From Patescibacteria group bacterium (lineage in GTDB: Bacteria; Patescibacteriota; Patescibacteriia; 2-01-FULL-39-33), in NCBI GenBank assembly GCA_041645075.1, contig JBAZQS010000001.1:9147-73146 (forward strand): a DNA stretch of 64,000 nt, read 5' to 3'. The notes beneath the pieces were generated by a model. The model was not told where the DNA came from. It was given only the letters and a program-made list of their open reading frames with translations, and made no database searches. Positions within the stretch are counted from its first letter, which is position 1. The number at the start of each line of letters is the position of its first letter. This document shows, in pieces, positions 10,928 to 60,646 of the stretch. Position numbers and translations under genes: made by a program.

Positions 10928-10937
10928 ATCGTCTAAA

Positions 10938-18811: not shown

Positions 18812-18823
18812 TTATTAATTTTA

Positions 18824-19020: not shown

Positions 19021-19029
19021 GGATTCGAA

Positions 19030-19102: not shown

Positions 19103-19385
19103 TTTTAGCATAGAATTGCCGCTTTGGCAAGAAACGGTCACAAAAACAAAAAAACACAAAAGCACAAAAAAACATGGAAACAGGAAAATGAAAATTACAG
19201 AAAAAATAAAGTATTAATTAAATTAATTTTTTTGTTTTAATATTTTCGTGTTCCAATGTTTTGATTTTATTTTAAAATAGAGGTATAATTTAAAGTAGTT
19301 TATCGTCGATTTGAATTATTATTTCCTATAACTATCAGCTTCAGTAAATAATTAATTTAAACATTTAATTACTTATTTATTAACC

Positions 19386-20954: not shown

Positions 20955-21003
20955 AATTTGAACATAAAAATACTCCAGATTAAATCCGGAGTATTTTTAT
21001 TTG

Positions 21004-21075
21004 TAGCAGGGGGCGGAGTTGAACCGCCGACCAATGGCTTATGAGTCCACTGCTCTACCACTGAGCTACCCTGCC
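21004..21075 (-). tRNA. tRNA-Met (anticodon CAT), copy 2
   Basis: Same as copy 1 except T-stem GGCGG/CCGCC. Followed by a block homologous to 18897-19020. Confidence 0.8.
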
Positions 21076-32645: not shown

Positions 32646-33272
32646 ATGTCTATGAGTAATCCGGAGAGCAATTTAGGCCTTGGTAATTACAATTCTCAAA
32701 AATCCCGCTTTGTTCGGACGAAAGAATTCGTCTGGGAAATGTTTAAGGTCGCGGTTGTTTCGCTGGCGATCATTCTCCCGGTTCGTTATTTTTTAATCCA
32801 GCCCTTTTATGTCAAGGGAGCGTCCATGGAGCCGAATTTTTATGATCATGAGTATTTGATCATTGATGAGATTGGTTATCGTTTTAATGAGCCCCAAAGA
32901 GGCGATATAGTGGTTTTTAAATATCCGAAAAATCCCAGGCAATATTTTATAAAAAGAGTTATCGGCCTGCCCGGGGAGCATATAAAAATAGAAAATGGCC
33001 GGATTTACCTATTGAAACCAGGCACTTCTTTTATCCCCTTGGCGGAAAATTATTTGGCGCCGGGCCTGGCGACCGACTTGCCGGCTCGCGGTTATGGCGA
33101 CATCACTTTGGGCGCCGACGAATATTTTTTATTGGGCGATAATCGGGGAGAAAGTTTGGATTCCAGGGTGTTCGGGCCGGTAAAAAGGAGTTTTATTATC
33201 GGCCGCACCTGGTTGCGTGGCTGGCCATTCACCCGGTTGACCATTTTTAATACGCCAAAGTATAACTTTTAA
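32646..33272 (+). CDS. lepB: Signal peptidase I
   Basis: S26 motifs GASMEPN (Ser), VIGLPGE, KRVIG (Lys box), GDNRGESLDSR. Confidence 0.88.
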   Translation: MSMSNPESNLGLGNYNSQKSRFVRTKEFVWEMFKVAVVSLAIILPVRYFLIQPFYVKGASMEPNFYDHEYLIIDEIGYRFNEPQRGDIVVFKYPKNPRQYFIKRVIGLPGEHIKIENGRIYLLKPGTSFIPLAENYLAPGLATDLPARGYGDITLGADEYFLLGDNRGESLDSRVFGPVKRSFIIGRTWLRGWPFTRLTIFNTPKYNF

Positions 33273-33298
33273 CCTTTAACTTTTTACTTTTAACTCTA

Positions 33299-34852: not shown

Positions 34853-34920
34853 TCGTGTTTGTCAATATTAATTTATTATAACGAGATGGCTATAAAGCCG
34901 TCTTAATTAAAGAAAGCGAG

Positions 34921-35166
34921 GTGAACCAAGTGGTAGAAGTAAAAAGAAAAAAGGGCGAGACCTTTGAGGCCTTAGTCAGGCGGTTTAGCAAAAAAATCCA
35001 GCAGAGCGGGCGATTAATCCAATCCAGAAAGATTAGGTATTATGAAGCGAAGAAAAATAAGACCGCCGTCAGAACCGCCGCGGCCCGTCGGCAAGAGATC
35101 AATGTAAAAAGGGACTATTTGAAAAAAATAGGCAAATTAGTGGAAGAACCGAGAAGTAATCGATAA
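34921..35166 (+). CDS. rpsU: 30S ribosomal protein S21 (GTG start)
   Basis: 81 aa, basic, ...ALVRRFSKKIQQSGRLIQSRKIRYYEAKKNKT... S21-like. Confidence 0.75.
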   Translation: MNQVVEVKRKKGETFEALVRRFSKKIQQSGRLIQSRKIRYYEAKKNKTAVRTAAARRQEINVKRDYLKKIGKLVEEPRSNR

Positions 35167-35201
35167 ATTTTTTAATTTCTCCCCCGAAAAATAAAAAAAT
35201 C

Positions 35202-35660
35202 ATGACCCTGCAGCCGCAAATTGAACAGGATTTTTTAAAGGCCCTTAAAAGAGGGGATAAATCCGTAGTGGACACGCTACGGATGCTTAAGGCCGCCGTC
35301 CAGAACAAAAAAATTGAAAAATTAATGGCCAAGGAAGCGGCCTTGCCTGATGAGGAAATGGTTGGCTTAATCAAATCGGAAATTAAAAAACGGCGGGACT
35401 CGATTGATTCATATCGGCAAGGCAACCGGAACGATTTGGCGGACAAGGAGGAAGCCGAAATAAAAATTTTAGAAAAATATCTGCCCGAGCCATTATCCGA
35501 AGATAAGTTAATTGAGATAATTAAAAATGTTATCGGTGAGTTGGGCGCGGCTGGTCCGGCTGATTTCGGCAAAGTAATGGGCGCGGTGGTGGCTCGGGTT
35601 AAGGGGCGGGCGGATGGACAGGTGGTAGCACGGTTGGTTAAAGAGGAACTTGGGAAATAA
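35202..35660 (+). CDS. GatB/YqeY domain-containing protein
   Basis: 152 aa; C-terminal ...DFGKVMGAVVARVKGRADGQVVARLVKEEL typical of YqeY. Confidence 0.8.
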   Translation: MTLQPQIEQDFLKALKRGDKSVVDTLRMLKAAVQNKKIEKLMAKEAALPDEEMVGLIKSEIKKRRDSIDSYRQGNRNDLADKEEAEIKILEKYLPEPLSEDKLIEIIKNVIGELGAAGPADFGKVMGAVVARVKGRADGQVVARLVKEELGK

Positions 35661-35701
35661 AATTAAAAATTAATCAATCTTTATAAAATAACTTAAAATC
35701 T

Positions 35702-38700
35702 ATGTTCAAGTCACGCCCTTCCCTCATGCAAAGGTCGTCCATCACCAAAATATTATTGGTTGTGTTTTTGGTGATTTTTTTGTTTTTAATTTTGCCGACC
35801 ACGACCTGGGCGCAAAACCTTGATCTTGGCTTGGAAAGCGCTCGGGGCATCGGCTTGGCCGAAACCCCGCTCAAGGTGATTATCGCTCGCATCATCCAGA
35901 TTGTTTTGGGTTTTTTGGGCATCTTGACCGTGATTTTGATTATGTACGCCGGCTTTATTTGGATGACGGCGGGCGGTGACGAAAAAAAAATTGAAACGGC
36001 GAAAAAAATACTTCGTGACGCCATCATCGGCCTGATTATAATTTTGGCCGCCTTTATCATCGTCTCCTTTATTTTGCGCGGCTGGGAGACGGGTGGCGGC
36101 GGCCCCGGCGGTCGCGGCCCCGGCGGCGGTCCTGATCTTTGGGGCCTGGGCCAGGATCCGGTGGAAAGCGTTTATCCGGCCAATAGACAAAGGGATGTGC
36201 CCATTAATACGATGATCGCGGTTACTTTTAAGGAGAAAATCAAGCCGAGCACCATCTGCCAAATAGCGGACACGGCGACCCGATGCAATGGCGAAGCCAT
36301 AAAAAGAGATGCAAGAAACAATCTTAATGTGGAGATTTGTAAATTAACCGCCGGTACAACGGCTTGCGAGACGACCGGTGAATTTAGGAAAGAAGATTTT
36401 GCCGCAACCAAGGTCTATAACAACGATGACTATACTTTCGTTTTCATTACTTATCAAAATGACAACAGGAAATATTTGGGCTTGGAAGACAAGCAGAATC
36501 GTGTTTTTCAGGTGACATTAAATCAAGGGATTATGAAAGCTGACGGCAGTGAGACCGTATTTAAAAATTCTACCAATCGGATGTATCGCTGGAGCTTTAC
36601 CACCAACGGCGAGCTGGATTTGGACCCGCCCGAAGTCCAGAGCACGAACGCGGTTTTAAATCCCGAGAGCATTGATAATGTGAGCGGGATTTGGCCCAGC
36701 CCGGATGAAAGGGCCGACACTTATGTATCGGCTGGCGTGGCGACGCGGACTCAATTGATGTTTACCGTCGGGTCGGGTAGCTTTAATCAGGAAATCGTCG
36801 CTTCCGCGACACCGCCCGCGCCCGTAAGCCCAAATACCACAAACGCCACCCTAAGCGGGACATATAGCGGCATAGGTGATGGCACAGTCACCGTGAATAT
36901 TATTGGCAATGCTGTTTCTGTTGCTTGGCCCGGTGTGACTCAACAGTATACCAGCGCTTATGATAGCGGTCTCAATGTAAATATCGGTCCTTATGGTTTA
37001 AATTTCAGATTAAATGAAGTGGTAGCAGGCAGTAATAGCTGGACTTTTAATGTTGTGGCGCCTAAAACCGGCGATCGGGTGCAATTTTTAGATGATAATA
37101 GAGTAATCAGAACATATACCATAGGCAGGGACACAATAGTTTCAGCCGTGGCCGTGAATGGTGATGGCGGAAGATTAAATACCCTAAAAAATATCGTGAC
37201 GAAAATTTTGACGGATTATGGCACGATTTTTCAACGTTGCGCCGTTGATCCAGATCTGTTGTGTCTGGAAACAAAAACCACCGGTTCAGCGACTAATCGC
37301 TATGCCGTAAAATTTTTAATCCAGAATACCACTGCTATTAGTACTGTGTTTAATGCGGCGGTTACGGCCGGTCAAAATATTTTGGAAAGAATAACGGTTA
37401 ATGGCATCAGAGACGCGTATCGCAATACCAAATTTCAGATTAATTTTAATGAGGCGGTGAATCCCTTGGTGATTGATAAAATTTTAGTTAAATATGATAA
37501 AGATTATAATGTCGCGAATGCCACTGAAGCCGCTAATACCGCCGAGACCTCAATCCTAAATACCGCCACCACAACAAAGATAAAATATAAGATTACTAAT
37601 AAATATCGCACCGTTGAATTAACCGGCAATATTGAATGCGGGGTGAATGCTTGCGGCGATAAAATTTATTGCTGGCCGGTAAATAATAAGATAGACACCA
37701 ATGAAGATGGCACTATAGATGTTCTTAATGATTTTGCTCACAAAGCCACTTATTATGAAGTAGAAACACCGGCGGCTAATTTAAAAAAATGCGGTACGGC
37801 TAATGAGGGCTGGTGCAGGACTTGGGGCGGGACTTGCGCCATAGATGGGCCATGCGGTAAAGCCGTGCCCAATGCTGCCAATCAAATAGTTTATTATCCC
37901 AAATCCATACCAACTTGCGTAGGCGATAATGATTCTTGGTGTGAAGGTAGTTGGGGCGGTACCTGTAATGCGGCCTTGGGCAATAAATGCACCAGAGTGG
38001 TCAGTGGAAATTTAGAAATTTATAAGCCCTCGGACAAACCCGAGGATTGGGGTATTTGCCCAACCGTTAATGCCGGTTGGTGTCTGGCTTGGGGCGGTTC
38101 CTGCCTGGCGAACGCGCCTTGTACCAAAATTTTAGCTTCAAACAAATTTTATTATCCTTCATTAGAAACGCCTTTTAGCAACGGCATGACGGACATGGCC
38201 TTAAATTCTTTTAACGGCAGTTTTAATTATTTTCAAGACCCGACTAATCAGAGATATTATGGCTTGGCCAATGGCCAGGAAAAAAACGCCTATATTTTAA
38301 ATTTAGCCAAGCCCTATTATAATCCCTTGGACCCGAGCGGCAGCGGTTTTGGCGATAATTTTCAGTGGAGTTTCTGGCTCTCGGATAAAATTGACTTGCA
38401 GCCGCCCCTTTTGATGAACATTGACCCGATAAAGGATAAGGAGGTAGATAATTTATTATATAAGCCCAAGCTTAATTTCAATAAGGTAATGAGTTACGGC
38501 ACTTTAAGGGCGGGCTGGCTTTATGGCCAAACCATAGAAGAAAGAAATAAGAGATATATTTTACTGACGCCGTTGAGAAACGGTTGGGCGGTCGGCTATA
38601 ACACTAATAGCAGTAATGATGTTGATCGCCGAGATGGCGAGCCCAAATATACCCACACTTTCGTTGAACATGACAGTCCGTTTTCCGTGCCCGCCAGTTA

Positions 38701-39193
38701 CGCGCCCTTGGCCGGCTCGGGCCTAGAATCCATTACCCAGAATTGCTTTTTGCCGGGTAGCGGGCCGAAAAATGCCGGTAGCGGCGCTTGCGTTTATCAA
38801 AATCAAAATAACCCGGAAGCCACGCTCACCACCGGCTGTGTCACCGATGCTGATATTGCTCTCGCGAATCGGGTAAAATTGCCCAATCCCGCTTCTTATG
38901 CCACGCTTTATTGCGATAGAGATGAAATTAACGGCGCTAAAAAATGCGGTCTTAATGATAACGGCACTAATAATCCCAAAGTATATTGTATGGCTTTTCA
39001 CGCGACTTCTACCAAGCCCGAAGTTAATGGCCGGTCGCAAAAAGGCAGCTGGGTTATCAGCCAAGACCATTCGGCTGTTCTATCCGATTTAACCGATGAT
39101 AATGAGAATATAGGTAAAACCGGCTGTTGTTTTGGCAAATGTTTTGATAATAATGGCACGCTTCTTAATTATAATGATGATATAGCCAAATAG
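35702..39193 (+). CDS. Giant surface protein 1 (1163 aa): signal peptide + helical-hairpin membrane anchor module, Gly-rich linker, Cys-rich tandem repeats
   Basis: The N-terminal ~125 aa are paralogous to the N-terminus of ORF 39303..51581 (YAGF(I/L)WMTAGGDEKKIETAKKI). Three tandem ~40-aa repeats C..N.GWC..WGG(T/S)C...C at DNA 37790-38160. A terminator hairpin at 39228-39252 follows. Confidence 0.8.
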   Translation: MFKSRPSLMQRSSITKILLVVFLVIFLFLILPTTTWAQNLDLGLESARGIGLAETPLKVIIARIIQIVLGFLGILTVILIMYAGFIWMTAGGDEKKIETAKKILRDAIIGLIIILAAFIIVSFILRGWETGGGGPGGRGPGGGPDLWGLGQDPVESVYPANRQRDVPINTMIAVTFKEKIKPSTICQIADTATRCNGEAIKRDARNNLNVEICKLTAGTTACETTGEFRKEDFAATKVYNNDDYTFVFITYQNDNRKYLGLEDKQNRVFQVTLNQGIMKADGSETVFKNSTNRMYRWSFTTNGELDLDPPEVQSTNAVLNPESIDNVSGIWPSPDERADTYVSAGVATRTQLMFTVGSGSFNQEIVASATPPAPVSPNTTNATLSGTYSGIGDGTVTVNIIGNAVSVAWPGVTQQYTSAYDSGLNVNIGPYGLNFRLNEVVAGSNSWTFNVVAPKTGDRVQFLDDNRVIRTYTIGRDTIVSAVAVNGDGGRLNTLKNIVTKILTDYGTIFQRCAVDPDLLCLETKTTGSATNRYAVKFLIQNTTAISTVFNAAVTAGQNILERITVNGIRDAYRNTKFQINFNEAVNPLVIDKILVKYDKDYNVANATEAANTAETSILNTATTTKIKYKITNKYRTVELTGNIECGVNACGDKIYCWPVNNKIDTNEDGTIDVLNDFAHKATYYEVETPAANLKKCGTANEGWCRTWGGTCAIDGPCGKAVPNAANQIVYYPKSIPTCVGDNDSWCEGSWGGTCNAALGNKCTRVVSGNLEIYKPSDKPEDWGICPTVNAGWCLAWGGSCLANAPCTKILASNKFYYPSLETPFSNGMTDMALNSFNGSFNYFQDPTNQRYYGLANGQEKNAYILNLAKPYYNPLDPSGSGFGDNFQWSFWLSDKIDLQPPLLMNIDPIKDKEVDNLLYKPKLNFNKVMSYGTLRAGWLYGQTIEERNKRYILLTPLRNGWAVGYNTNSSNDVDRRDGEPKYTHTFVEHDSPFSVPASYAPLAGSGLESITQNCFLPGSGPKNAGSGACVYQNQNNPEATLTTGCVTDADIALANRVKLPNPASYATLYCDRDEINGAKKCGLNDNGTNNPKVYCMAFHATSTKPEVNGRSQKGSWVISQDHSAVLSDLTDDNENIGKTGCCFGKCFDNNGTLLNYNDDIAK

Positions 39194-39227
39194 GCCATTA
39201 ATTAATATTCTAATAGTGTATTTAAAT

Positions 39228-39252
39228 ACCCTCTCCTCTATTGAGGAGAGGG
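39228..39252 (+). terminator. Terminator hairpin between the two giant genes
   Basis: ccctctcctc-tattg-aggagaggg, followed by SD-like gaggagg and the next ATG. Confidence 0.5.
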
Positions 39253-39302
39253 TAGGGTGAGGAGGATTAAATTTCCTATTCCCATAATTTTCTAAATTCA
39301 CG

Positions 39303-42300
39303 ATGACCGCGATTGTCAAAAAGAAAAAATTCATAGCGTTTGTCCTGATTTTGGTTTTGGCCGGAATTTTTATTCTATTCAATCCGATTTTGGCCCAAGA
39401 CCAATTCGGCTTAAACAGCGCCGCGGGCATCGGCTTGGCGCAAAATGACCTTAAAACCACCATTGTCAATATCGTCAGGATATTTTTGGGATTTTTGGGA
39501 TTGGTGGCCGTGATTTTGATTATTTACGCCGGCTTTTTGTGGATGACGGCGGGCGGTGACGAAAAAAAAATTGAAACGGCAAAAAAAATAATTTTAGGCG
39601 CGGTCATTGGCTTAATTATTATTCTGTCGGCGTTTGCCATTGTTTCTTTTGTTTTAACCAGGTTGGCGCCACCGCCGGCCGAGCCATGCGTGTCCGGGAC
39701 AATCGTTAGTTGCGGACCGCAGGGCTGCGGCAGTAAAATTTGCGTCAATGGGAGTTGGGGCGTTTGTAATATCAACACCTCCGCCTGCGACTTTATTCTT
39801 AATAACAAATTAAGCTACATAAAATATTTCCGCTCCGATAAAATACCGGCGGCCGGAAACACTTTTTCAAATTGGACCAGAAACATCAGTTATAATTTTA
39901 GCGGCGTGGTCGGCGTGCCAAAAATAGATGATTTGTCGGTCGGCGCTTACGCGCGAAATAGAGGCGGCTTCATAACCGATACGCGATTATATAAAGTGGA
40001 GGGCTTTGACGGCACAGTTTTTACCGACTACGGCCCATTTAATCCAAATCAAACCCCCAACGAAGAATTTGACACCCAAATTGCTTGGGACACTTCGGCT
40101 TTGAATTTGCAATCAGAATGGAAAATAAAAACTCATGTTGTGCCAAGCGGTATTGCCACGCCATTTGAGTCGCCGGCTATTAAAACAAAAATTAGAGCGC
40201 CCAACTGCTTCAACGGCATCCAGGACTCACAATCGCCTTATGGCGAAACCGGCATTGATTGCGGCGGCAACCCGGCCAGCCAATATTATTGCGGGGCGTG
40301 CGGGGGAGAAAGTTGCAGCAACGGCGGCGACAGCAGCCAATGTCTTGACGAAAATTGCGCCACCAGCGTCTGCCTGCCAATTAATTGCCTGTGCGCCCAA
40401 AATCCGATTATTGATTGGATTGAGCCCGATAATGGCGCGGCCGGGAATTATGTCACCATCGGCGGCCGCTATTTCGGCAATTTAAAGGGCGCGGTTTATT
40501 TTGGCAATACCCGGGCTAATTTGGAATTAAATCCCGAATGCAACAGCACTTGGACCAGCAACCAGATTATCGTGGAGGTGCCGGCCATCGCGCAAAACAC
40601 TTATCAGGTGACGGTCCAGACCCATCAGGATTTTGGCGGTTTAACCAGCAACAGCAAGGACTTCATTCTTAATAATATTGTCCGGCCCGGCCTTTGTAAT
40701 GTTTATAATTTGGATATTTATACGGATAGAAATGTAAAAATAAACGCCGGCTCGGCGAATCAAACAGGCCAGCTTATCGGCGCGAATTTTCCGACCACCG
40801 GCCTCAAAAATGTTGTCTGGAAATTTCTTCCCACCAACACCACCAGCACCGGTTCCAATTGGGCCATAGATAGAGCCCGCGACTTGGTGCCGGAGAACAA
40901 GAGGGGGATGACCAATTTAAATGTTTATAACGGCGCGCAGTATAGTAATCCGTTTAGATTTTTAGTCAGTCCGGGCGGGATCGGCGACCCCTGCGGTTTT
41001 GCCGATGATTCGCCCGGCATTTGTTCGGCGGCAGAGGTTTGCCAGACCGGCCTGGAATGTAATATTTTGGCTACTCCCACTAAGCCGGCTTGTACTTGCC
41101 AATCAGCCGCCAATTTTTGCAATAATAACGGCCAAGTGGAAGGCACGGAAGAGTGCGACGGCACGGCTTTTAAAGACAATAAAAATCAATGTTCAAATTA
41201 TCCCGGCTTTACCGGCGGCGCGCTATCCTGCAACCGACAATGCCGACCAGACACCTCGCAATGTGTCAGTGTTTCCACCACTAACATACCGGCGGGCATG
41301 GGTATATTCACTTGGTCGTTCAATACGATAATCAGCCCGCCCACGCCGTATAGTTGCGGCTATGACCAATATGGCGCCTGCAGTATAAGCGGCTGCGCCA
41401 CGGGCCAGAGATGCGAGGTTCAGGGCAATAGTGACGAATTTATTGAATTTTATAATCCGACTGGCTACACCGTTAATAATTTCGGCGCCTGGTTATTGGT
41501 TATCAATAAAACAAATACTTCTACCATCTCAAATTTTTTGCCGGCGGGCGCCAGCGCTTCAATTCCGGCCAGGGGCTTTTTTGTTTTGCCGCGAAGCGCT
41601 CAATTTGGCTTGCCGCCCGCTTACTCGGGAGCCGTAACCATTAAATTGGTGCGGTCAGCCAACACGGCTTATGATGATAAAATTACCTATGGCGGTCCCG
41701 GCAAATTGCCCTTAGCCATTGCCCCAACTTCTTTGGGCCGGAAAATTGACGGCCTTGAAAGTAGAAGCATATTTTCCGATCCCCTTGTTTTTACTGATTT
41801 TTCTGTTTTTGCCCGTTCCACTAAAGGCGTCTCTAACAGCGCGGAACCAGCCAAAACAGGCGCTCGTCTACTTATTAATGAAATTTCCGTGGGCATTGAC
41901 CCTTGCACTTGCCGGCCAGCCGCGCTCGCTACCTGCGCCAACGGCCTATTGGATGTGGGCGAGATTTGCGATCGGGTGGGCAATGAGGACGTATTCCAGC
42001 GCGGCACTGGCCTTTGCTCGGATTATAATATCGGCTCAACCGGCCGGTTATCCTGCCGGAATTGCCAGATTGATAAGAGCAGTTGCCAAGGTCCTTTAGT
42101 CGATATCACCCAAGCGGCCATTGGTATGTACACCTGGTCGTTTAATACGATTAGCCAATCGCCATTTCAACGGCCTTATGTGGTGGAGGACTGCAGTCGG
42201 ACAAGAAGTTGTGATGTCGGCGCTAAAATGGCCAGCCCCACCCCCTGGAGCGAAGAATGGAATCAAGTCAAGCACCCCAATTTATATATTCCTCAACCAT

Positions 42301-45300
42301 TGGCTTGCGTGGACGCGGTTATCTCGGCCAGGTTCAGCAATCGTATGAATCCAGCCACCATAAATAATAACACGGTTATTGTTTTAAAATGCGATAATAC
42401 TAACGGCAAAGATTGCCGGAAAGTTAGCGGCGCGGTTGAGGTATATAAAGATAATAACAATTTAGATTATGATATTTTTAAGTTTACGCCGACCGCTGAT
42501 TTGACGCCCAATGCCTGGTATAAAGTGGTTTTAAAGAGCGAAGAAATCAAGGATTATGTTGGTTTAAAATTGGATAATAAAACAACTTTATTAAGTTTAT
42601 CAGAGAGGTATTGCGCCGAAATTACTTATAACGGCGGGATTACCACGGACAAGGATTATTGCTGGAATTTCCAGACCAGGCCAAGTAACGTCAAATGTAA
42701 TCCGGGTTGCGTGGAATGTTCGCCCGACCCAGAGCGATTTCGTTATAGGTTTGAAGCCAAACCATTTAAGGCCAATTTGGACAGCGAGGACAATGTTTGC
42801 TTAATGCTTAATTCTTGGAATTATCTGTGGAATTGGAGCACTGATAAAAGCGATAAAATTTTTGTTTATAATTTGGCAAATCAACCGGTCGCCACGGGCA
42901 TTGCCTTAAAAGAAACGATTTATGATGCGCCCGATAAATTTGCCAAAGTTATTACCCAGTTAGAAGTTAATCCAAACAAAACCGATTATTGCCGCGCCTA
43001 TATTGATTTGACTAATTTGGTGGTGATTGAGGACCAGTCCTGCGACAAGGGCACGACTCAAAGCCCCAGCCCTTGGATTATGTCAGAAGACGCCTGTTTA
43101 AACGGTTTGATTTCGGCGCGCTTTAATTTGCCCGTAGCCGATGAGACGGTTAAATCCTCGGGGAATTTAATTGTGGAAAAATGCGGCGGCGTAAAAGACG
43201 AGGCGCTCGCGGGCGTAGGATGCGAGAGACAGTCAGTTAACTCGGCGCAGATACATATTTTCCCTTACAGCCATCTTCCGCTTAGTGAAAACTTAAGAAA
43301 CTTAATTTTTGAGCAAGGCCTTTCGCCCGCTTTTCCCGAGGGCTTTCTCATTAATCAAAGTGAGAATTTTAATCCCAACACCTGGTATCGGGTGATTCTT
43401 CTTGGTGGCGATAATGGCGTGCGGGCCTCAAAGATAATAACCTTAGCCGATGGCACAGAAAGTGATACCAACGAACCGCAGGGGAAACTCTTAACGCCCA
43501 ACCCCAATACCCGCACCGATTATAATCAAGATGGTGAAGATGATTATATCTGGCTATTTAAGACCGGCAGCCAAATCTGCGAGGTAGATTCAGTTGAAGT
43601 TGCGCCGGCCGATAAATTTATGAAATATACTTACGAAACCCAGGTTTATAATGCTTTTGCCCAGGCCGCGAATTGCAATGTGCTTAATTCCTGTAAATAC
43701 AATTGGCAGTGGCGTTCAGTTATAGAGCCAACCGACAACAGCAACTCGGGCGATAGTATTGCCACCATTAAAAACGAAAAGGATCAGCCGAGTATTTGCG
43801 TGGGCAAGGGCGGTGAGAAAATCGGGCCTACTTTGGTTGACCCAGTCCAACTCGCTTCCGCGGTAGCAGAAGGTGAGACCAATATTAAGGCCATAGAACC
43901 GGGGAAAGACCTCGTTCATCCAAATCAACCGGCTTATGGCGCGAAATGGGATTACGGCCATTTGCAAATCGGTTTTCCTAAGTTACGGATAACGGATTAT
44001 AAACCCAAAGGCAAGATATTATGCACTAATGAGAATATTAAAATTACTTTTAATGAGGATGTCAAAAGCAGTTCAATCCGCGTCACCAATCCAGCTTTAA
44101 GCGCTGATAATATTAAAGTGTATAAATGTGTGGGTGATGGGGTTTGTGTAAAAAAAGGATTAATCGGTTACTGGAATTTTGACGACGGAGATGCAAAAGA
44201 TTCTTCTGGAGCAGGCAATGATGGTATTAAGAAAAATGGGGTAGTTATATCTCCTTATGCAGAGAAAGGGATGGTTGCGATTTTTGACGGGGTGGATGAT
44301 TATATTGAAATACCAAATACAAATACTAGTCCATTAACTGATAAAATAACAGTTTCTGCATGGATATATTTTAATGATTCATCTTTTACAACTCAGCAAT
44401 GGGTGGTGAATCAAGGAAGAGATTATTATGGTTCTGGATGGGGAATATTGTTATATAATGGAGCATTGAGATTCAGTGTTAATACAAATAATGCAGATGA
44501 TGGAAGGGAAATTACTATCGCATCTCCGGTTTCTTCAAGAAGATGGTATTATGTTACGGCTGTTTATGATTCAATTAATGGGGCTAAACTTTATATTGAT
44601 GGTGTTGAGAAAGCAAATGCATCTGCGAAAGGCAAGATTGTCTATAAGTATAATGAAAAAATAACTTTTGGTGTAATGGCATTTTATTCTCCTACGTATT
44701 TCAAATTTAGCGGGATGCTTGATGATGTGAGAATTTATAATCGTGTTTTGAGTGACACCGAGATAAAGGAATTGGCAGGGTCAACGCAACAAAACGCAAC
44801 TTGCTACACTAATGATGATTGCCCCACCTCTCTTGATGATATGCCTTTGAATTTAAAGGTAAATTATCCGGCTTATGTTTACGGTTATTCTTCCGGTGTT
44901 TGGACGCCTGTTTGGACGCCGGAGCTTTCGAAAGAATTGGACTTATCTATTGTCAATGCGCTTGAGCCCAAGGCCAAATATCGAGTGGTGGTAAATGGCG
45001 GTCCGGCCGGCCCGATTGCCTGGAATACAAATCAATTGGGCGATTTGAATTATAATGTCGGCAATGGCCGCGGCGAAGAATGCGAACCCGGGCTCTATCC
45101 TTGGAAGGTTTTATCCGGCTCTTGCGAAAACGCCTTTTACGCGCTCCAGAAATGTGTTTTACCTTATTATTACAATTCGTGTCCCGATCCAGCCAATCCC
45201 AATGATTTAAAAAATTTAATCAAAGAATGCAACCGGGGTGAAGCTTATTGCGACCAAAATTGCCATAATACGGGTAACACCAATATTGCTTCCTGCGGCG

Positions 45301-48300
45301 ATGGCATTAAAGAGTCGTCGCTTGAAGAGTGCGATGATCGCAACACCATAAACGGCGACGGCTGCAGTAGTAATTGCCTTTTAGAGGGTTCGGATCAAAA
45401 ATATGGCTCTCTTTGCGGCAACCAAAGAATACAAACAGGCGAGAGTTGCGATGACGGCAACACCGCAAACGGCGACGGCTGTTCTGATAAATGCTTGCCA
45501 GAATCCGGCCGGCCAAACGGTTCACGGCCAAACGCGCCCATTTGTGGCAATGGCAAGATAGAAATCGGCGAGGATTGCGATGATGGCAATAAAGTTAATG
45601 ACGATGGTTGCAATTTCCGCTGTTTAAATGAGGGTTCAAGCGGTGGCGCCAGGTGCGGCAATAATGTGGTGGAAAAGGGCCAGCCCACTAGTTTCTCTTG
45701 GACTTTTGCAGTAGACCAAAGCGCTGAAACTTGCGTGCCAGTAGTATTTAATATTAGTAATTGTCCTAATGGCATTTGGGAGGCGGTGGTGGGCGTTAAC
45801 ACTACCATGAATTTAAATAATTTTGCGATTTGCGAGCATGATAATACAGTTTTTAATAATGTCGCTTTTGGCAATAGTTTATGGGGTAAGATTTTAGGCA
45901 AGATAAAATTAGTCGTAAATAAATTTACCAATAGAAAATCCGTCTTTGCCGGAGTTGGCGATCTTTGTGGTAATGGCTGGACGATTCGACCCAATGGTGA
46001 ATTTGATATTTTGGAATATAGCAGTACGGATAATCAGAAAATTTTTGATTTTATTAAAAAAGCGGATTGGGCTGGTGGTCATGAGTATAAAATTGTGGGA
46101 GATATAAACCGCAACGGCGGGTTTGATGAAGGAATTGACACCCAGGCCTCGGTAATAATGAGAACGCATGGCCGTTGTTGGATTGAAGGCGCAAAGATAA
46201 ACGTCTGGCCCATGGGCGAGGAAAAATATAATGATACTTTTTTCTGCTACGGCGAAAATTGCGGTAAGCGAACCGTAAGCTTATATGATGATGATATTTC
46301 CGCCGATTGGAACACTCTTTTTCCTTATTTGAAATATAATGATATTGCCGTTAGCGACCCCCTCAAACCGGGTAACCAGCATTTGTATCAGGCCTGGGCT
46401 TTAAGCACCAGTAGTGATTTATTGAAATCAAATATCGCATGGAGTATGAGCAATCCGAGTTATGTCAGTCAGCAGGATTTTAATTATTCTACCGGAGTTG
46501 GCGATGGCAATAGAAACAAATGGTTCACGGGCGGTAATGTGGGTGGCGACGGCTACATAACCGCCAAAGTCACCTCTGATTCTAATATAGACATCGGTAA
46601 AGCCACAGCCACGACCACAGTCAAAGTGTTTTTATGCGAAAATCCCTGGCCGTCGCCCGAGAATTTTCCTTATTATGATTCTGCTAATAATTGCAAGACC
46701 AATAGCGGTGGCTGTGTTAATACCAATTTTGAACTTTATTATTGCCGTGATAGCGGGGCGGCCGGACCAGATGGCGATTTGCCGGCGGTTTATGACCCGG
46801 TGGTTATCGGTTATAGCGCTCTTACCCCGGCCAGAAATGTCAACGATTTAATAAAAGAATTTATATTTACCAGGCAGTTTTCCCTAGCCGAAGCGACAAG
46901 AAATATCAAGCAGACGATTACGGGCGATAAGACCATTACCGATGTCGGAGATGGTAGAAACGGGTGTTATATTCAACCTGGCTACGCCGTGACATTTATC
47001 GAAAGTGATAGGTGTGATTTTGTTTATGAAATTAATTTTCCCAAATCAGGGGATTATTATTTGCTTTTAAAGACCGCCAACGACAATAACTCGCTTGAAA
47101 AAGCGGGTTTGGATATCAATCATGAAATGGACATCAGGGTAGATGGCGTGATTAAGGGGACAATTATCGCCAAAGCCAGCCTGCCAAATAATCCCCAGAC
47201 CAATATAGTCAAATTATCCAATATTTCGGCTGGGAAGCATGCCATAAAAATTGACTGGACAAATGATTTTTATTGTTCCGGTCCCGGTGGCGCTTCGTGC
47301 CCGTCCTGGACTCCTATAGATACGGTCACCGGTGAATATAAATATTTTGATTCTAATTTAAGAATTTACAGCCTGGCTTTGGCCGAGGGTTCAAATGACG
47401 ACGCCATTGGCGTCAGAGTCGTGGCTAACAGTAATCATTTTTCACCGCTATTTTGGTATCGGAAATATTTTGACCCAAATAATCAGGGCAGTCCCAGCGG
47501 CCTGCTCGCCAATGATTATCAGGGCGTCAGAGAGGGCCGGACGGTTTATGTCAATGCCGCCGATTTAAATGATAATAAGAAAGAGATTTATAGCAATGTG
47601 TACTTGCTTTCTTATAGCGCCGCTGCCGATGCCATTACCAAAGATATTTATAATGGCCTGCTGGCTAATTTTCATTTTAATGTACAAAATCCGTTTGGCG
47701 TCTGCAGCGCTGACGCCACCTATAAATGCTTGACCGACACCAACTGCCAGCAAGCCAATAAGGGCTATTGCTTATTAAATTACAGCCAAGGCGGTTTGCC
47801 CGACTTCGGCGTCTGCAGTGATGATGCCACCTATGAATGTTTGACTGACACCAATTGCCAAAAAGCCAACAAGGGCTATTGCTTGTCGGATAAAGCCAAG
47901 TTAACCCGAGACACCAAACGGCTGGCCGACTTGCAATTCATTAATTCACTTTTGGCTACTTATAATAATACCAAGAGATGCAATAACGACCATTCGCGCT
48001 TATGTGCCGGCGACTCCGGTTGCTATGGCGGCGGTTCTTGCGGCAACTATTATCCGAATTTATTAGCCGGTTCTTATATTGTCGGCCGAACCTTTAGCGC
48101 TTGGCCGTCTTGGCAGGCGACTTTGGGCAACACCATTGGCTCGGCTTTGCCCATTGACCCCCTAAACGGTTTTAAGGGCTGTGGCGACCAATATGACAAA
48201 ATCACCTGCTGGGATAATTTAAATAAATTAATGCGGTGTCCGGACGAGACGACGTATGTTTATACTTATTCCTCAACGGCGATAAACGGCAAAAGCGAAA

Positions 48301-51300
48301 CCAAGAACATATTTGCCCATCGGGAATATGCTCCGACGCCAGCCGCTTCCTGGCAGCCGGTTTGGAGCCAGGTTGAGTACATGAAGGATAATCCCGATCC
48401 ATTCAAAGATCCGTTTACGAATTTCAGCGTTGCCCAGATGTGCCAACCCACGCCGACTTGCGGCAATAACACAATTGAGGCGGGAGAAAATTGTTACAAT
48501 TGCTGGGCCGATGCCGGCTGTGGCAATAGCGCGCTAAATGCGGGCGAAAGCTGTCAACGAAGCGTTGTTGCCGGTGTAGAAAATTGGTCGTGCCGTTGTC
48601 CGGATAGCGACCGTATTCCCTATGCAAATGATAAAACCAAATTAATATCTGATGGATTTCCGGACGTGGCTTGCGGCGGTAAAGCGAGAGATAATTGTCC
48701 TTATGTTTTTAATCTTGATCAAACGGATAGCGATAGCGATGGCATTGGTAATGCTTGTGATAGCTGTCCGACAAGTGCCAATGTCGATCAAAAAGACAGC
48801 GATCGCGACGGCGTGGGCGATGCCTGTGATAATTGTGTCAGTAAATATAATTTGCGAGTAAATGGAAATCAGCCGAATTCTGATGGCGATAATTTTGGCG
48901 ATGCCTGTGATAATTGTTCGACCGTGGCCAATAATGATCAGACGGATGCCGACAGCGATGGCGTGGGTAATGTGTGCGACAACTGTCCGACCATTAAAAA
49001 TCAAAATCAAAATGATATTAATCGCAATGGCCGGGGCGACGCTTGCGAGGTTTATGTTGCGAGTTATTGCGGCAATAGCGTTGTGGAAAATATAAATACG
49101 GGCGGTTATGGCAGTGAGGTTTGCGATGAAGGAGCCGATAATGGCAAGCCCAATCGTTGCAACAGCACTTGCACCGGAATTTTTTCCACTTTCTGCGGCG
49201 ATGGCCAAATGGTAACTGGTGATAATGAACAGTGCGACTGCGGCATTGACCCGGCGCGTTTGCCCGTGGGACCGGCCTGTACGACTTCATGGCCGGCAGG
49301 AGCGGGCTCGCGTCCGACCTGGGATACAGTCAGTTTTACTACGATTAATGGCGTGCCGCCGGATTTGTATTCCACCGATCAAAAAACATTATGGTATTGC
49401 AGCGCCGGTTGCCAACAAACCCGCCAAGACAGCCGTTATTGCGGCGATAGCCGGGTTGATAGCTTAAACGGCGAGCAATGCGATTTAGGAGTACAAACCG
49501 GTCTGACAGACACCACCTATAATTATGACTATGGTACCTGCAATACTCAATGCCAGAGGACTTATTGCGGCGATGGCAAAAAACAGGACCCTAATGGCAT
49601 GGGCCGGGGCGGTCCAAATAATGACGGCAAAGAAGCGTGCGACGGCAGTGATTATGGTTCCGGTGGCCAGCCAATTGGTAAGACGTGCAATAATAATTGT
49701 CAAATTGTGGCAAACACCGTAAATGTAAATTTAGGCGTTTGTGGCGATGGCGTCAAACAAACACCGAATACCAGCGGACTCAATGAAACTTGCGATGAGG
49801 GGGCTTTAAACGGCCAACCTGGCCACTGCAATTCAACTTGTACCGGAGTTTTATTAGATCAATTTTTATATTATGGCCGTATTCATTTTGGAGAAATGTG
49901 TGATGGCACGGTTCATGCTTATTTAGCTACTTATAGCCCATTAATATTAGATAGCGGTTGGTTAAGTATGGCTTCAAAACTTGATAACGCCATGTTTTTG
50001 GTTAATCAAAAAAGCGATGATCCTTGCTCTAAGGGTTCGGATACCCCGGTGCCGGCAGGATATAATGTCGTGGGTGGCATTCATTTGGGCGACAAGGAAA
50101 GAGACGTGGCTTCGGACAATTCTTACTGCTCTTTTATTGCGGCTGTTGGTTATAACGGCACGGCTTGGAATACGGCCATGGGAACGGCCGGGACGAATTT
50201 AGAAGGACCTGGTTGGGTGAAAATCGCGGCTAAAGACGATTCTATTAAATTAGCTATGGTTTATGGGGTAAATCCCGAAAGTCCGCGCGCATCATGTCCG
50301 TCGGGCTATACCGAACAAGGGGCCATATTTGTTGGCTTAACGACTGTGACTGATAATCTGCCTCGGGCGTACATTGGTGGGACTTCCATAAGCAAGGGCT
50401 GGGTTTCTTTCTGTGTGAAAAATAATATTCCGGCGCAGACGAAATTCGAAGTGGGTCAAAGAGATGATTGCAGCATTGTCCAGGCAAATCGTTATTCTTG
50501 CCCGGCCGATTATAAAATGATTTTCGTGTCCACTTCGGGCAGTAGTAGTAATGATGGTTTAAGTGAAGCCGACCCCAGAGCCACCTTAGACCAAGCGCAA
50601 GCCGTGGTCGCGGCCAATCCTTCAGAGCCGGGTTATTGTATTTTATTAAAAGGCGGAGATACATTTACTACTTTTACCTCTCATGGTACAGCAGTTGAAA
50701 CGGGCGAAACTGATGTTAATTCGCATTATGCATTTTTGTGGAATATTAATAAGCCGTTGGTTATGAAGTCTTATGGCGCGCCAAACGCGATTTTACAGCA
50801 ACCATCTGCCCAGTCGGCAACTATGCCGCCCGCGGCCATTGCTATCGCGCGACCAGAATCAAGCCCGTTGACTAGCAAGGTTATTATTTCTAACCTAACT
50901 TTTAAAAATTGGCAGGCCCGGGTTATTTATATGTCTAGTGTGAGGAACGTGGAGATAAATAATAATATTATTGAAGGTGCGGGCACAAAACAATTAGGTG
51001 ATAATGGCGGAGTTTATGGAGATGGAGTTATCTACCCCGAAGATTCTAGTGGCATAGTTGTTGATGGCAATCAAATAACCGATTCACTTAATAGGACTGG
51101 TGATAAGTATGATGATATCCATGCGGTGTATATAAACAGATCTTCCAATATTGAAATAAAAAACAATACGATTACCAATATTTCTGGGCCGGCTCTCAAG
51201 ATGGTTAGAAACCAGACATCCGATATATCAATCCATGATAATACTCTGAATTATATTGGTCCTTATATCGGACAATCGGAAGTCCAATTTGGATTTGTGA

Positions 51301-51581
51301 GGTTGGCCGATAAGGGGGGCGGTTGTCCTACCGGCATAAGAATTTATAGTAATACATTTTGGTATCCGTATTGTACTGGCAGTTCTTGTTCTAATAAGCA
51401 GGTTAATCGCTGTTCGTCCGAGGGCTGTAGCAGTTTTTGCGGATCTAATGATACGCCGAATTCAAGCGGAACGTATGATAATGTAAATGGTAATTTTGGC
51501 GACAATCAGCCGACAGTATTATGGAAAAATGGCGTTTCTGGGGCGTGGGGTACAAATAATTTCAGAGGCGGATGGCAGTAA
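39303..51581 (+). CDS. Giant surface adhesin-like protein 2 (4092 aa): anchor module, Cys-rich regions, LamG/concanavalin-like lectin domain, Myxococcus-type Cys-rich repeats, thrombospondin type-3 Ca-binding repeats, C-terminal parallel beta-helix
   Basis: - Uninterrupted 12.3-kb ORF.
- LamG-like: GLIGYWNFDDGDAKDSSGAGNDG...FDGVDDYIEIP...VSAWIY...LDDVRIYNRVLSDTEIKEL.
- Myxo Cys repeat x3: CGDGIKESSLEECDDRNTINGDGCSSNCLLE.
- TSP3 repeats: DQTDSDSDGIGNACDSC, DQKDSDRDGVGDACDNC, DQTDADSDGVGNVCDNC.
- Beta-helix tail homologous to 19386..20954. Confidence 0.85.
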   Translation: MTAIVKKKKFIAFVLILVLAGIFILFNPILAQDQFGLNSAAGIGLAQNDLKTTIVNIVRIFLGFLGLVAVILIIYAGFLWMTAGGDEKKIETAKKIILGAVIGLIIILSAFAIVSFVLTRLAPPPAEPCVSGTIVSCGPQGCGSKICVNGSWGVCNINTSACDFILNNKLSYIKYFRSDKIPAAGNTFSNWTRNISYNFSGVVGVPKIDDLSVGAYARNRGGFITDTRLYKVEGFDGTVFTDYGPFNPNQTPNEEFDTQIAWDTSALNLQSEWKIKTHVVPSGIATPFESPAIKTKIRAPNCFNGIQDSQSPYGETGIDCGGNPASQYYCGACGGESCSNGGDSSQCLDENCATSVCLPINCLCAQNPIIDWIEPDNGAAGNYVTIGGRYFGNLKGAVYFGNTRANLELNPECNSTWTSNQIIVEVPAIAQNTYQVTVQTHQDFGGLTSNSKDFILNNIVRPGLCNVYNLDIYTDRNVKINAGSANQTGQLIGANFPTTGLKNVVWKFLPTNTTSTGSNWAIDRARDLVPENKRGMTNLNVYNGAQYSNPFRFLVSPGGIGDPCGFADDSPGICSAAEVCQTGLECNILATPTKPACTCQSAANFCNNNGQVEGTEECDGTAFKDNKNQCSNYPGFTGGALSCNRQCRPDTSQCVSVSTTNIPAGMGIFTWSFNTIISPPTPYSCGYDQYGACSISGCATGQRCEVQGNSDEFIEFYNPTGYTVNNFGAWLLVINKTNTSTISNFLPAGASASIPARGFFVLPRSAQFGLPPAYSGAVTIKLVRSANTAYDDKITYGGPGKLPLAIAPTSLGRKIDGLESRSIFSDPLVFTDFSVFARSTKGVSNSAEPAKTGARLLINEISVGIDPCTCRPAALATCANGLLDVGEICDRVGNEDVFQRGTGLCSDYNIGSTGRLSCRNCQIDKSSCQGPLVDITQAAIGMYTWSFNTISQSPFQRPYVVEDCSRTRSCDVGAKMASPTPWSEEWNQVKHPNLYIPQPLACVDAVISARFSNRMNPATINNNTVIVLKCDNTNGKDCRKVSGAVEVYKDNNNLDYDIFKFTPTADLTPNAWYKVVLKSEEIKDYVGLKLDNKTTLLSLSERYCAEITYNGGITTDKDYCWNFQTRPSNVKCNPGCVECSPDPERFRYRFEAKPFKANLDSEDNVCLMLNSWNYLWNWSTDKSDKIFVYNLANQPVATGIALKETIYDAPDKFAKVITQLEVNPNKTDYCRAYIDLTNLVVIEDQSCDKGTTQSPSPWIMSEDACLNGLISARFNLPVADETVKSSGNLIVEKCGGVKDEALAGVGCERQSVNSAQIHIFPYSHLPLSENLRNLIFEQGLSPAFPEGFLINQSENFNPNTWYRVILLGGDNGVRASKIITLADGTESDTNEPQGKLLTPNPNTRTDYNQDGEDDYIWLFKTGSQICEVDSVEVAPADKFMKYTYETQVYNAFAQAANCNVLNSCKYNWQWRSVIEPTDNSNSGDSIATIKNEKDQPSICVGKGGEKIGPTLVDPVQLASAVAEGETNIKAIEPGKDLVHPNQPAYGAKWDYGHLQIGFPKLRITDYKPKGKILCTNENIKITFNEDVKSSSIRVTNPALSADNIKVYKCVGDGVCVKKGLIGYWNFDDGDAKDSSGAGNDGIKKNGVVISPYAEKGMVAIFDGVDDYIEIPNTNTSPLTDKITVSAWIYFNDSSFTTQQWVVNQGRDYYGSGWGILLYNGALRFSVNTNNADDGREITIASPVSSRRWYYVTAVYDSINGAKLYIDGVEKANASAKGKIVYKYNEKITFGVMAFYSPTYFKFSGMLDDVRIYNRVLSDTEIKELAGSTQQNATCYTNDDCPTSLDDMPLNLKVNYPAYVYGYSSGVWTPVWTPELSKELDLSIVNALEPKAKYRVVVNGGPAGPIAWNTNQLGDLNYNVGNGRGEECEPGLYPWKVLSGSCENAFYALQKCVLPYYYNSCPDPANPNDLKNLIKECNRGEAYCDQNCHNTGNTNIASCGDGIKESSLEECDDRNTINGDGCSSNCLLEGSDQKYGSLCGNQRIQTGESCDDGNTANGDGCSDKCLPESGRPNGSRPNAPICGNGKIEIGEDCDDGNKVNDDGCNFRCLNEGSSGGARCGNNVVEKGQPTSFSWTFAVDQSAETCVPVVFNISNCPNGIWEAVVGVNTTMNLNNFAICEHDNTVFNNVAFGNSLWGKILGKIKLVVNKFTNRKSVFAGVGDLCGNGWTIRPNGEFDILEYSSTDNQKIFDFIKKADWAGGHEYKIVGDINRNGGFDEGIDTQASVIMRTHGRCWIEGAKINVWPMGEEKYNDTFFCYGENCGKRTVSLYDDDISADWNTLFPYLKYNDIAVSDPLKPGNQHLYQAWALSTSSDLLKSNIAWSMSNPSYVSQQDFNYSTGVGDGNRNKWFTGGNVGGDGYITAKVTSDSNIDIGKATATTTVKVFLCENPWPSPENFPYYDSANNCKTNSGGCVNTNFELYYCRDSGAAGPDGDLPAVYDPVVIGYSALTPARNVNDLIKEFIFTRQFSLAEATRNIKQTITGDKTITDVGDGRNGCYIQPGYAVTFIESDRCDFVYEINFPKSGDYYLLLKTANDNNSLEKAGLDINHEMDIRVDGVIKGTIIAKASLPNNPQTNIVKLSNISAGKHAIKIDWTNDFYCSGPGGASCPSWTPIDTVTGEYKYFDSNLRIYSLALAEGSNDDAIGVRVVANSNHFSPLFWYRKYFDPNNQGSPSGLLANDYQGVREGRTVYVNAADLNDNKKEIYSNVYLLSYSAAADAITKDIYNGLLANFHFNVQNPFGVCSADATYKCLTDTNCQQANKGYCLLNYSQGGLPDFGVCSDDATYECLTDTNCQKANKGYCLSDKAKLTRDTKRLADLQFINSLLATYNNTKRCNNDHSRLCAGDSGCYGGGSCGNYYPNLLAGSYIVGRTFSAWPSWQATLGNTIGSALPIDPLNGFKGCGDQYDKITCWDNLNKLMRCPDETTYVYTYSSTAINGKSETKNIFAHREYAPTPAASWQPVWSQVEYMKDNPDPFKDPFTNFSVAQMCQPTPTCGNNTIEAGENCYNCWADAGCGNSALNAGESCQRSVVAGVENWSCRCPDSDRIPYANDKTKLISDGFPDVACGGKARDNCPYVFNLDQTDSDSDGIGNACDSCPTSANVDQKDSDRDGVGDACDNCVSKYNLRVNGNQPNSDGDNFGDACDNCSTVANNDQTDADSDGVGNVCDNCPTIKNQNQNDINRNGRGDACEVYVASYCGNSVVENINTGGYGSEVCDEGADNGKPNRCNSTCTGIFSTFCGDGQMVTGDNEQCDCGIDPARLPVGPACTTSWPAGAGSRPTWDTVSFTTINGVPPDLYSTDQKTLWYCSAGCQQTRQDSRYCGDSRVDSLNGEQCDLGVQTGLTDTTYNYDYGTCNTQCQRTYCGDGKKQDPNGMGRGGPNNDGKEACDGSDYGSGGQPIGKTCNNNCQIVANTVNVNLGVCGDGVKQTPNTSGLNETCDEGALNGQPGHCNSTCTGVLLDQFLYYGRIHFGEMCDGTVHAYLATYSPLILDSGWLSMASKLDNAMFLVNQKSDDPCSKGSDTPVPAGYNVVGGIHLGDKERDVASDNSYCSFIAAVGYNGTAWNTAMGTAGTNLEGPGWVKIAAKDDSIKLAMVYGVNPESPRASCPSGYTEQGAIFVGLTTVTDNLPRAYIGGTSISKGWVSFCVKNNIPAQTKFEVGQRDDCSIVQANRYSCPADYKMIFVSTSGSSSNDGLSEADPRATLDQAQAVVAANPSEPGYCILLKGGDTFTTFTSHGTAVETGETDVNSHYAFLWNINKPLVMKSYGAPNAILQQPSAQSATMPPAAIAIARPESSPLTSKVIISNLTFKNWQARVIYMSSVRNVEINNNIIEGAGTKQLGDNGGVYGDGVIYPEDSSGIVVDGNQITDSLNRTGDKYDDIHAVYINRSSNIEIKNNTITNISGPALKMVRNQTSDISIHDNTLNYIGPYIGQSEVQFGFVRLADKGGGCPTGIRIYSNTFWYPYCTGSSCSNKQVNRCSSEGCSSFCGSNDTPNSSGTYDNVNGNFGDNQPTVLWKNGVSGAWGTNNFRGGWQ

Positions 51582-60639: not shown

Positions 60640-60646
60640 ATCCGTT

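Follow-up and report, generated by a model that had tools for sequence, protein, structure and literature searches.

A conserved tandem pair of large Patescibacteria proteins that share an N-terminal pilin-like membrane module

Introduction

VirB2-like pilins and arrays of their genes have already been described in Patescibacteria (PMC12102498, PMC10633639, PMC12857230), and in one tested species the type IV secretion system (T4SS) and its pilin arrays are essential, with an adhesin not yet tied to the system (PMC12102498, PMC10633639). F-pilin resides in the inner membrane before its extraction, and both of its termini are external in the filament (PMC5018250). Here, we analyze a 64,000-nucleotide stretch of DNA from a Patescibacteria group bacterium (GenBank assembly GCA_041645075.1, contig JBAZQS010000001.1, positions 9,147 to 73,146, forward strand; hereafter the window), in which two adjacent genes, A and B, encode large proteins that begin with the same pilin-like module, a predicted signal peptide followed by a two-helix hairpin. 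An earlier sequence-only reading of the window had pointed out this shared module together with a nearly identical block of DNA inside it. We show that the module belongs to a catalogued pilin family, that the gene pair is found at equivalent loci in many related genomes, and that the DNA block bears the signature of gene conversion.

Results

Genes A and B share one N-terminal module of the PF18895 family

Gene A (35702..39193, forward strand) encodes 1163 amino acids (aa) and gene B (39303..51581, forward strand) 4092 aa, as judged from the list of open reading frames (ORFs), their translations, Pfam matches, and hydropathy. A BLASTP comparison of the two proteins yields a single significant match, between residues 17-125 of A and 11-118 of B (61% identity, E = 7e-34), in line with the earlier alignment of the N-terminal ~125 aa; outside the first ~120 residues, the proteins are unrelated. 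Aligned as DNA, the two N-termini agree at 78% of positions overall and almost perfectly in their core. Six-frame translation combined with an HMM scan places only two copies of the module in the window, those of A and B. Behind the module, A continues with a Gly/Pro linker and a β-rich, Cys-containing ectodomain with a weak Pfam match to Big_5, and B with TIG, LTD, Big_5, Laminin_G_3, DUF4215, and TSP_3 regions. Cysteine makes up 2.6% of A and 4.2% of B, and every Cys lies C-terminal to the module in both.

The module scores above the gathering threshold of the Pfam family PF18895 (T4SS_pilin; 26.6 bits) in both proteins, with 33.8 bits for A (aa 55-124) and 36.4 bits for B (aa 48-117). B also passes the NCBIfam cutoff of 40 bits for NF045849 ('pilin-like conjugal transfer protein', the Mbov_0395 family of a Mycoplasma integrative and conjugative element) with 41.9 bits, and A falls just short of it with 34.4 bits. 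The TrbC/VirB2 family PF04956 matches B below its gathering score (22.8 versus 27.9 bits) and does not match A, and precomputed PF04956 matches are present on many close homologs of the module. These matches support the likeness to VirB2/TrbC-type pilins that the sequence-only reading had proposed for the module.

When the module profile was searched against a representative library, the family comprised 81,172 clusters at 50% identity. The best homologs are Patescibacteria proteins of mostly 115-140 aa (range 112-178 aa) that carry the NCBI name 'pilin'; A and B fall well outside the size of such small free-standing pilins (~110-150 aa), and long relatives of 487-4029 aa account for 18 of the 64 single-module proteins among the best 150 representatives. 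In an alignment of 108 family members, G84, T89, and G92 (A numbering) are invariant and F85, W87, M88, A90, G91, and A100 are at least 90% conserved. The module retains invariant residues of the free-standing pilins (G73, G84, T89, G92, G110, and the FxWMTAGG motif). These sequence comparisons give good support to the module of A and B being a homolog of the small VirB2-like T4SS pilin and a member of PF18895. The two proteins are an architectural variant of this catalogued family, and the fusion to a very large ectodomain is already visible in precomputed domain annotations.

A type IV pilin identity was considered and rejected: there is neither a class III signal peptide (G↓F/M-x-x-x-E) nor a GFxxxE motif, the predicted signal peptides end in TWA↓QN and ILA↓QD, and two further helices follow. 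Many database proteins (P0200-P0263) carry 2-17 tandem pilin modules per polypeptide, for example P0217 (1775 aa, 17 modules), P0201 (820 aa, 8 modules), and P0225 (1147 aa, 11 modules); these may represent 'poly-pilins' or gene calls fused across arrays.

Predicted topology of the module and its ectodomains

The predicted signal peptide of A (35702..35812, forward strand; aa 1-37) has an n-region with a net charge of +4 followed by a hydrophobic h-region and ends in ...LPTTTWA↓QN, with a predicted signal-peptidase-I site after Ala37. This residue is at least 90% conserved among the 108 family members, where the consensus is AxA, and the motif (L/W/F)-A-Q is aligned in 12 of 12 A/B modules from six genomes. 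Helix 1 (35870..35968, forward strand; aa 57-89; hydropathy segment 55-92) is predicted to cross the membrane from outside to inside, with an AlphaFold2 pLDDT of ~90-95. It is followed by a turn and the basic start of helix 2 (35969..36007, forward strand; aa 90-102; AGGDEKKIETAKK), predicted to be cytoplasmic, with the AlphaFold2 turn at residues 90-93. The hydrophobic part of helix 2 (36008..36091, forward strand; aa 103-130; hydropathy segment 100-131), which lies within the AlphaFold2 helix 94-130, would lead back from inside to outside. The linker (36092..36136, forward strand; aa 131-145; TGGGGPGGRGPGGGP) is Gly/Pro-rich and disordered, with a pLDDT below 50 for aa 130-145. B follows the same plan, with a signal peptide ending in ...FNPILA↓QD (39303..39395, forward strand; aa 1-31) and a hairpin (39447..39659, forward strand; aa 49-119) of helix 1, the turn GGDEKKIETAKK, and helix 2, delimited by PF18895, hydropathy, and alignment to A.

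Modeling with the 108-sequence alignment gave the hairpin as helix 57-89, a four-residue turn (90-93), and helix 94-130 at a pLDDT of ~95. The AlphaFold2 model of full-length A (pLDDT 79.8, pTM 0.72) consists of this hairpin, a disordered linker, and a β-rich ectodomain. Hydropathy gives exactly three hydrophobic segments per protein, all within the first ~130 aa, and together with the models agrees with the topology of signal peptide plus helical hairpin that the sequence-only reading had proposed. As sequence inspection revealed no C-terminal sorting signal in A or in B, the hairpin would be their sole membrane attachment. The C-terminal part is predicted to lie outside the cell whether or not the signal peptide is cleaved, and an extracellular ectodomain fits both the Cys content and the domain inventory (the Ig-like Big_5 and TIG, Laminin_G_3, LTD, TSP_3, and DUF4215). 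In a Foldseek comparison with the Protein Data Bank (PDB), the full-length model of A returned low-probability multi-Ig matches (PrgB, CfaE/CfaB, ClfA/B) and a CopC-like sandwich; the best structural match was to the Ig-like domains of PrgB (E = 1e-4, probability 0.16).

The gene pair occupies a conserved locus

We scanned species-representative genomes with the module profile, and the following counts refer to the 80 best loci. At 71 of these, a medium gene (~570-1030 aa) and a giant gene (~1450-3540 aa) stand in tandem, each product carrying one N-terminal module. Upstream of the 71 pairs lie the genes for signal peptidase I (LepB, 59/71), HisRS (60/71), and S21 (62/71), and the order LepB-HisRS-S21-(YqeY) found just upstream of the pair in the window (32646-35660) recurs at ~60 of the 71 pair loci, across several candidate phyla. 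LepB (Peptidase_S26 according to Pfam; 32646..33272, forward strand), a conserved upstream neighbor, is the enzyme expected to cut the signal peptide of the module; LepB and the pair may be functionally tied, for instance through signal-peptide or TraF-like processing. On the downstream side, a TSP3-repeat protein often comes after the pair where the sequence extends far enough, represented in the window by 51623-52333 and 52367-53830.

The record titles of the loci name Falkowbacteria, Magasanikbacteria, and Komeilibacteria, which belong to the class ABY1 of GTDB. Five further genomes are syntenic, with LytR, LepB, HisRS, S21, YqeY, A (966-1156 aa), and B (3311-4193 aa where complete) and with PF18895 in both A and B. 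The closest ortholog of A (74% identity) is found in a Candidatus Falkowbacteria metagenome-assembled genome (MAG), and the A family consists of 79 homologous clusters of ~860-1160 aa, nearly all annotated with PF18895 and PF13205. By sequence and gene order, the A and B pair is an old and conserved locus. Many third-party-annotation (TPA) MAG records that hold the patescibacterial pair locus (L008, L015-L017, L024-L026, and others) bear the title 'uncultured Gammaproteobacteria bacterium', in all likelihood because they were mislabeled at the source.

The remaining nine of the 80 loci (among them L039, L046, L049, L058, L060, L079, and L086) hold small pilin genes in arrays of 6-12. A gene for an extracellular solute-binding protein (SBP_bac_1/8) precedes the array at seven of the nine, and DUF2079, Wzx, or Wzy-type genes often flank the arrays. 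Among 20 large ORFs flanking such arrays, we saw no VirB4 or other T4SS family and instead found polysaccharide and solute-binding-protein genes. This association calls the 'T4SS' label into question for the array subfamily of PF18895. Several proteins at array loci have the reverse order, with a signal peptide, a Cys-rich ectodomain of 150-320 aa, and a C-terminal PF18895 hairpin (L060 4233-5510 and 5501-6328, L039 7358-8449, L058 8122-8862, L086 8813-9847), and many array pilins carry C-terminal tails of 60-190 aa. The reverse-order proteins suggest that the hairpin accepts a passenger at either end, as would be expected if both ends are external, and the external termini of the VirB2-type hairpin likewise make a passenger at either terminus topologically compatible (PMC5018250).

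A nearly identical DNA block within the module

Within the module, 35945-36010 of A and 39525-39590 of B are identical in register at 63 of 66 positions (95%), and the longer intervals 35928-36010 and 39508-39590 at 79 of 83. Both contain an exact 41-mer (35960-36000 in A, 39540-39580 in B), for which shuffled sequences gave an expectation of zero chance matches. The sequence-only reading had reported ~80 bp at ~95% identity; the near-identity is real, and its interval for B (39523-39598, paired with 35940-36015 of A) was 3 nt out of register, so that the literal pairing gives 34/76 matches and the shifted interval 39520-39595 gives 69/76. Inside the block, 22 of 23 identical degenerate residues use the same codon, whereas elsewhere in the module 15 of 34 do (Fisher p = 4.6e-5); the excess identity of A and B therefore reaches synonymous sites. 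Repeat collapse or another assembly artefact was considered and rejected, as an independently assembled ENA contig (L001) has the same blocks, with five differences over 23,492 positions and none in either block, and the exact repeat of 41 nt is below read and k-mer length.

For a comparison of four sequences, we built a codon alignment of A and B from the window (Aw, Bw) and from a syntenic Falkowbacteria contig (L002; Ah, Bh). Across the flanks (signal peptide, helix 1, and helix 2), 69 sites follow orthology (Aw=Ah, Bw=Bh) and one is concerted (Aw=Bw, Ah=Bh). Within the block (A 35945-36010), no site follows orthology, two are concerted, and at six further sites Bh alone differs (flanks versus block, p = 0.0012). 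The distances point the same way: in the block, Bw-Aw is 0.05, Aw-Ah 0.06, and Bw-Bh 0.18, compared with 0.04-0.11 for Bw-Bh in the flanks. Since Bw lies near Aw and far from its own ortholog, the block of B appears to have been overwritten by A-type sequence, with 35945..36010 (forward strand; 41-mer core 35960-36000) as the inferred donor in A and 39525..39590 (forward strand; core 39540-39580) as the inferred recipient in B. The tract would be at least ~33 nt and at most 66 nt long.

Block identity between A and B has a median of 0.71 across 66 pairs, of which the window (0.95) is the maximum, and in one relative (L006) 21 of 22 amino acids of the block are identical with only 9 of 19 codons shared; these values argue against a general nucleotide constraint. 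The block falls on YxGFxWMTAGG...AKK, the motif in which the proteins of the family are most strongly conserved, and this conservation leaves enough identity there to seed recombination. A short, recent, and lineage-specific gene conversion from A to B, after the split from the Falkowbacteria sister, is thus well supported by the sequence patterns. The sequence-only reading had offered gene conversion or functional constraint as alternatives; we find both acting together, in that the top-conserved motif of the family also carries lineage-specific identity at synonymous sites. Homogenization is seen elsewhere as well, over the whole module at two loci (L067 and L027) and over the helices but not the block at another (L051), and for 32 of 132 modules the nearest sequence is their own paralog, not an ortholog. 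At L006 (10001-13700, on a 958-kb contig, JGI 3300029288), A and B have a lineage-specific loop in common, GGDPDKVNKAKK, with diverged codons.

An RNA element was also considered for the block and rejected, given that no Rfam family matches the region and nucleotide conservation is absent in relatives. Each block holds an A9 homopolymer (GAC GAA AAA AAA ATT; 35982-35990 and 39562-39570), and these are the only A runs of at least 9 nt in the window, which also has one T9 run (31988-31996). The A9 runs are possible phase-variation sites, where a slip of ±1 would truncate A or B just after helix 1. In the sister contig, the run is interrupted in both genes (GAA AGA AAA and GAA AAT AAA).

Other features of the window

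A promoter and terminator scan of 34800-39800 gave no more than would be expected from shuffled sequence. Six ORFs of 183-424 aa, at 1968-6263 (reverse strand) and 10074-11996 (forward strand), have no Pfam or NCBIfam match, and 4001-6000 shows raised GC (0.50 versus ~0.42) and a strong negative AT skew. The genes for tmRNA (8002-8381) and smpB (8400-8855) are adjacent on the reverse strand, and three tRNA-Met genes cluster with one tRNA-Leu gene at 18728-21075. The anaerobic ribonucleotide reductase NrdD (57181-60444; 1087 aa) carries an intein (Pfam Intein_splicing, aa 428-788) inside its catalytic domain and is followed by the NrdG activase (60605-61342).

Discussion

Taken together, we consider it probable that A and B are cell-surface proteins which a Falkowbacteria-like Patescibacterium encodes as a conserved tandem pair, with the hairpin as membrane anchor and display module, in the manner of the dedicated anchor or export module suggested by the sequence-only reading, and with the DNA block produced by conversion from A to B. 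The signal peptide would direct Sec insertion of both proteins, and LepB would then remove it by cutting behind the conserved Ala, at TWA↓Q in A and at ILA↓Q in B. A hairpin of the two long hydrophobic helices would be left in the cytoplasmic membrane, with the short basic turn in the cytoplasm and both hairpin ends outside, so that the Gly/Pro linker and the large Cys-rich, Ig-like or lectin-like ectodomain could project from the cell surface. There, the giant ectodomains may be displayed as host- or surface-binding proteins. As the hairpin keeps the invariant motif of the free-standing pilins, it probably also shares a partner or an assembly route with them. Conversion would have started where selection on the protein had already kept the two modules most similar.

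Several observations weigh against this picture or soften parts of it. Cleavage and orientation are predicted from hydropathy, motif conservation, and AlphaFold2, and the adhesin role of the ectodomains is weakly indicated, by the PrgB match and by generic Pfam domains. The conversion signal draws on one sister genome and two parsimony-informative concerted sites, the rest being distance asymmetry. A sequence-profile search of PDB chains with the module gave no match at E <= 10, and a fold comparison returned only generic hairpins, in which a VirB2 hairpin is not separable from other helical hairpins. Among window ORFs of at least 100 aa, we found no T4SS Pfam family, to which an NCBIfam scan of the six ORFs lacking Pfam matches added no T4SS component, and none of the conserved neighbors of the 71 pair loci (LepB, HisRS, S21, YqeY, and TSP3 proteins) is a T4SS gene. 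The 'T4SS' in the name of the family is thus unsupported at the A/B locus. T4SS loci of ABY1 adjoin comF, recG, and radA (PMC12102498), so any T4SS of the source genome would be expected elsewhere.

In a different account, the two proteins would serve as genuine pilus subunits ('modular T4SS pilins'). A machine of the VirB4 type, encoded elsewhere in the genome, would pull the hairpin out of the membrane and build it into a VirB2-like filament of free-standing pilins, either sparsely or at its tip, and this filament would carry the ectodomains as adhesins. We regard this as unlikely. Beyond what a generic anchor needs, the module keeps the invariant pilin residues; the external termini of F-pilin in its filament (PMC5018250) would accommodate such passengers; and a pair locus (L021) occurs together with a small-pilin array (L079) in one Komeilibacteria MAG. 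Patescibacterial T4SSs have essential pilin arrays with no PrgB-like adhesin reported (PMC12102498, PMC10633639), modular type IV pilins offer an analogy (PMC8179133), and the repeated homogenization of A and B modules within genomes, seen in the 32 modules closest to their own paralog, speaks for subunits as well. Set against this are the missing T4SS genes in the window and around the 71 pairs, and the sampled small-pilin arrays, which adjoin solute-binding-protein and polysaccharide genes rather than VirB4. A passenger of 1,000-4,000 aa on every subunit would be sterically incompatible with a shaft, leaving only rare incorporation, and in the literature covered, a pilus has so far been shown for no PF18895 protein. 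It is equally unlikely, in our judgment, that the medium and giant pair supplies the missing adhesins of the patescibacterial T4SS, incorporated into a conjugative-type pilus, or into its tip, in a monoderm bacterium. If it did, that pilus would display host-binding ectodomains of 1,000-4,000 aa, and recurrent homogenization of the hairpin would keep A and B fit for one filament.

Two further explanations concern single parts of the evidence, and both seem highly improbable. The block could be maintained by a nucleotide-level constraint that acts on A and B alike, for example through RNA structure, a regulatory site, or an A9 slippage or phase-variation switch, and it does hold the only two long A runs of the window. 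Synonymous sites are nevertheless free to vary elsewhere, as the median identity of the 66 pairs and the codons of L006 demonstrate, neither gene of the sister has an intact A9, the region is without a match in Rfam, and the four-sequence pattern is that of a B-type block replaced by an A-type one. The module itself might be a generic signal anchor or two-helix stub that resembles VirB2 by composition, without common descent or shared function. The generic hits of the fold search, the sub-threshold TrbC match, the empty PDB profile search, and the lack of T4SS context would suit such a stub; the PF18895 scores above the curated threshold in both proteins, the NF045849 score above cutoff in B, and the precomputed PF04956 matches on many close homologs would not, and the non-hydrophobic motif WMTAGGD..K....AKK is common to tens of thousands of small pilins.

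The favored reading of an anchored surface pair matters because Patescibacteria depend on host-cell contact. The module that the two proteins share is already catalogued in Pfam, and their nearly identical stretch of DNA is no new functional element but a short patch of ordinary gene conversion. What the analysis mainly adds is a branch-wide pair of pilin-anchored giant proteins as candidate attachment factors. In Falkowbacteria, Magasanikbacteria, Komeilibacteria, Buchananbacteria, and relatives, which make up a large branch of the phylum, the two genes keep a fixed locus, and their products join a pilin hairpin to very large ectodomains of Ig-like, lectin-like, and Ca-binding type that are candidates for host attachment. 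More broadly, pilin modules may serve as display anchors for passengers at either terminus. In the literature as far as covered, which is incomplete, we found no account of PF18895 fusions or giant pilin-anchored proteins, of the LepB-HisRS-S21-(YqeY)-medium-giant locus, or of hairpin homogenization.

Among known systems, the free-standing PF18895 pilins, including those of the Southlakia epibionticum and TM7x arrays, are closest: they belong to the same HMM family and share the AxA signal peptide, the hairpin, and YxGFxWMTxGG...AKK (PMC10633639, PMC12102498). They measure ~110-150 aa and are often arrayed or near virB4, whereas A and B add a C-terminal ectodomain of 1,040 or 3,970 aa and, unlike them, sit in the housekeeping surroundings of LepB-HisRS-S21-YqeY with no T4SS gene nearby. 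Canonical VirB2, TrbC, and TraA resemble the module in their long LepB-cut signal peptide, hydrophobic hairpin, basic inter-helix loop, and outer-face termini (PMC5018250); they differ in that the sequence match is sub-threshold, the host of A and B is monoderm, and the gap in size is 10- to 40-fold.

In design, the closest analogy is provided by the modular type IV pilins such as PilB of Streptococcus sanguinis (PMC8179133), in which a small pilin or assembly module is likewise fused to a large adhesive module. The systems are unrelated, with a class III signal peptide (G↓FxxxE) and one N-terminal helix in the type IV pilins and an AxA-type site and two helices in A and B. PrgB-type adhesins of Gram-positive conjugation, to which the best structural match of A points, are also large, secreted, and rich in Ig-like domains. 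PrgB is attached through LPXTG and sortase and encoded in a T4SS operon, whereas A and B would be anchored N-terminally and lack a sorting signal at the C-terminus.

Gene conversion between pilin paralogs is familiar from Neisseria, where the silent pilS cassettes diversify the exposed variable region of pilE. The tract in A and B would likewise reflect non-reciprocal, short-tract transfer between pilin paralogs. Unlike pilE/pilS conversion, it appears to homogenize the most conserved, membrane-embedded part of the module, and to do so between two expressed genes.

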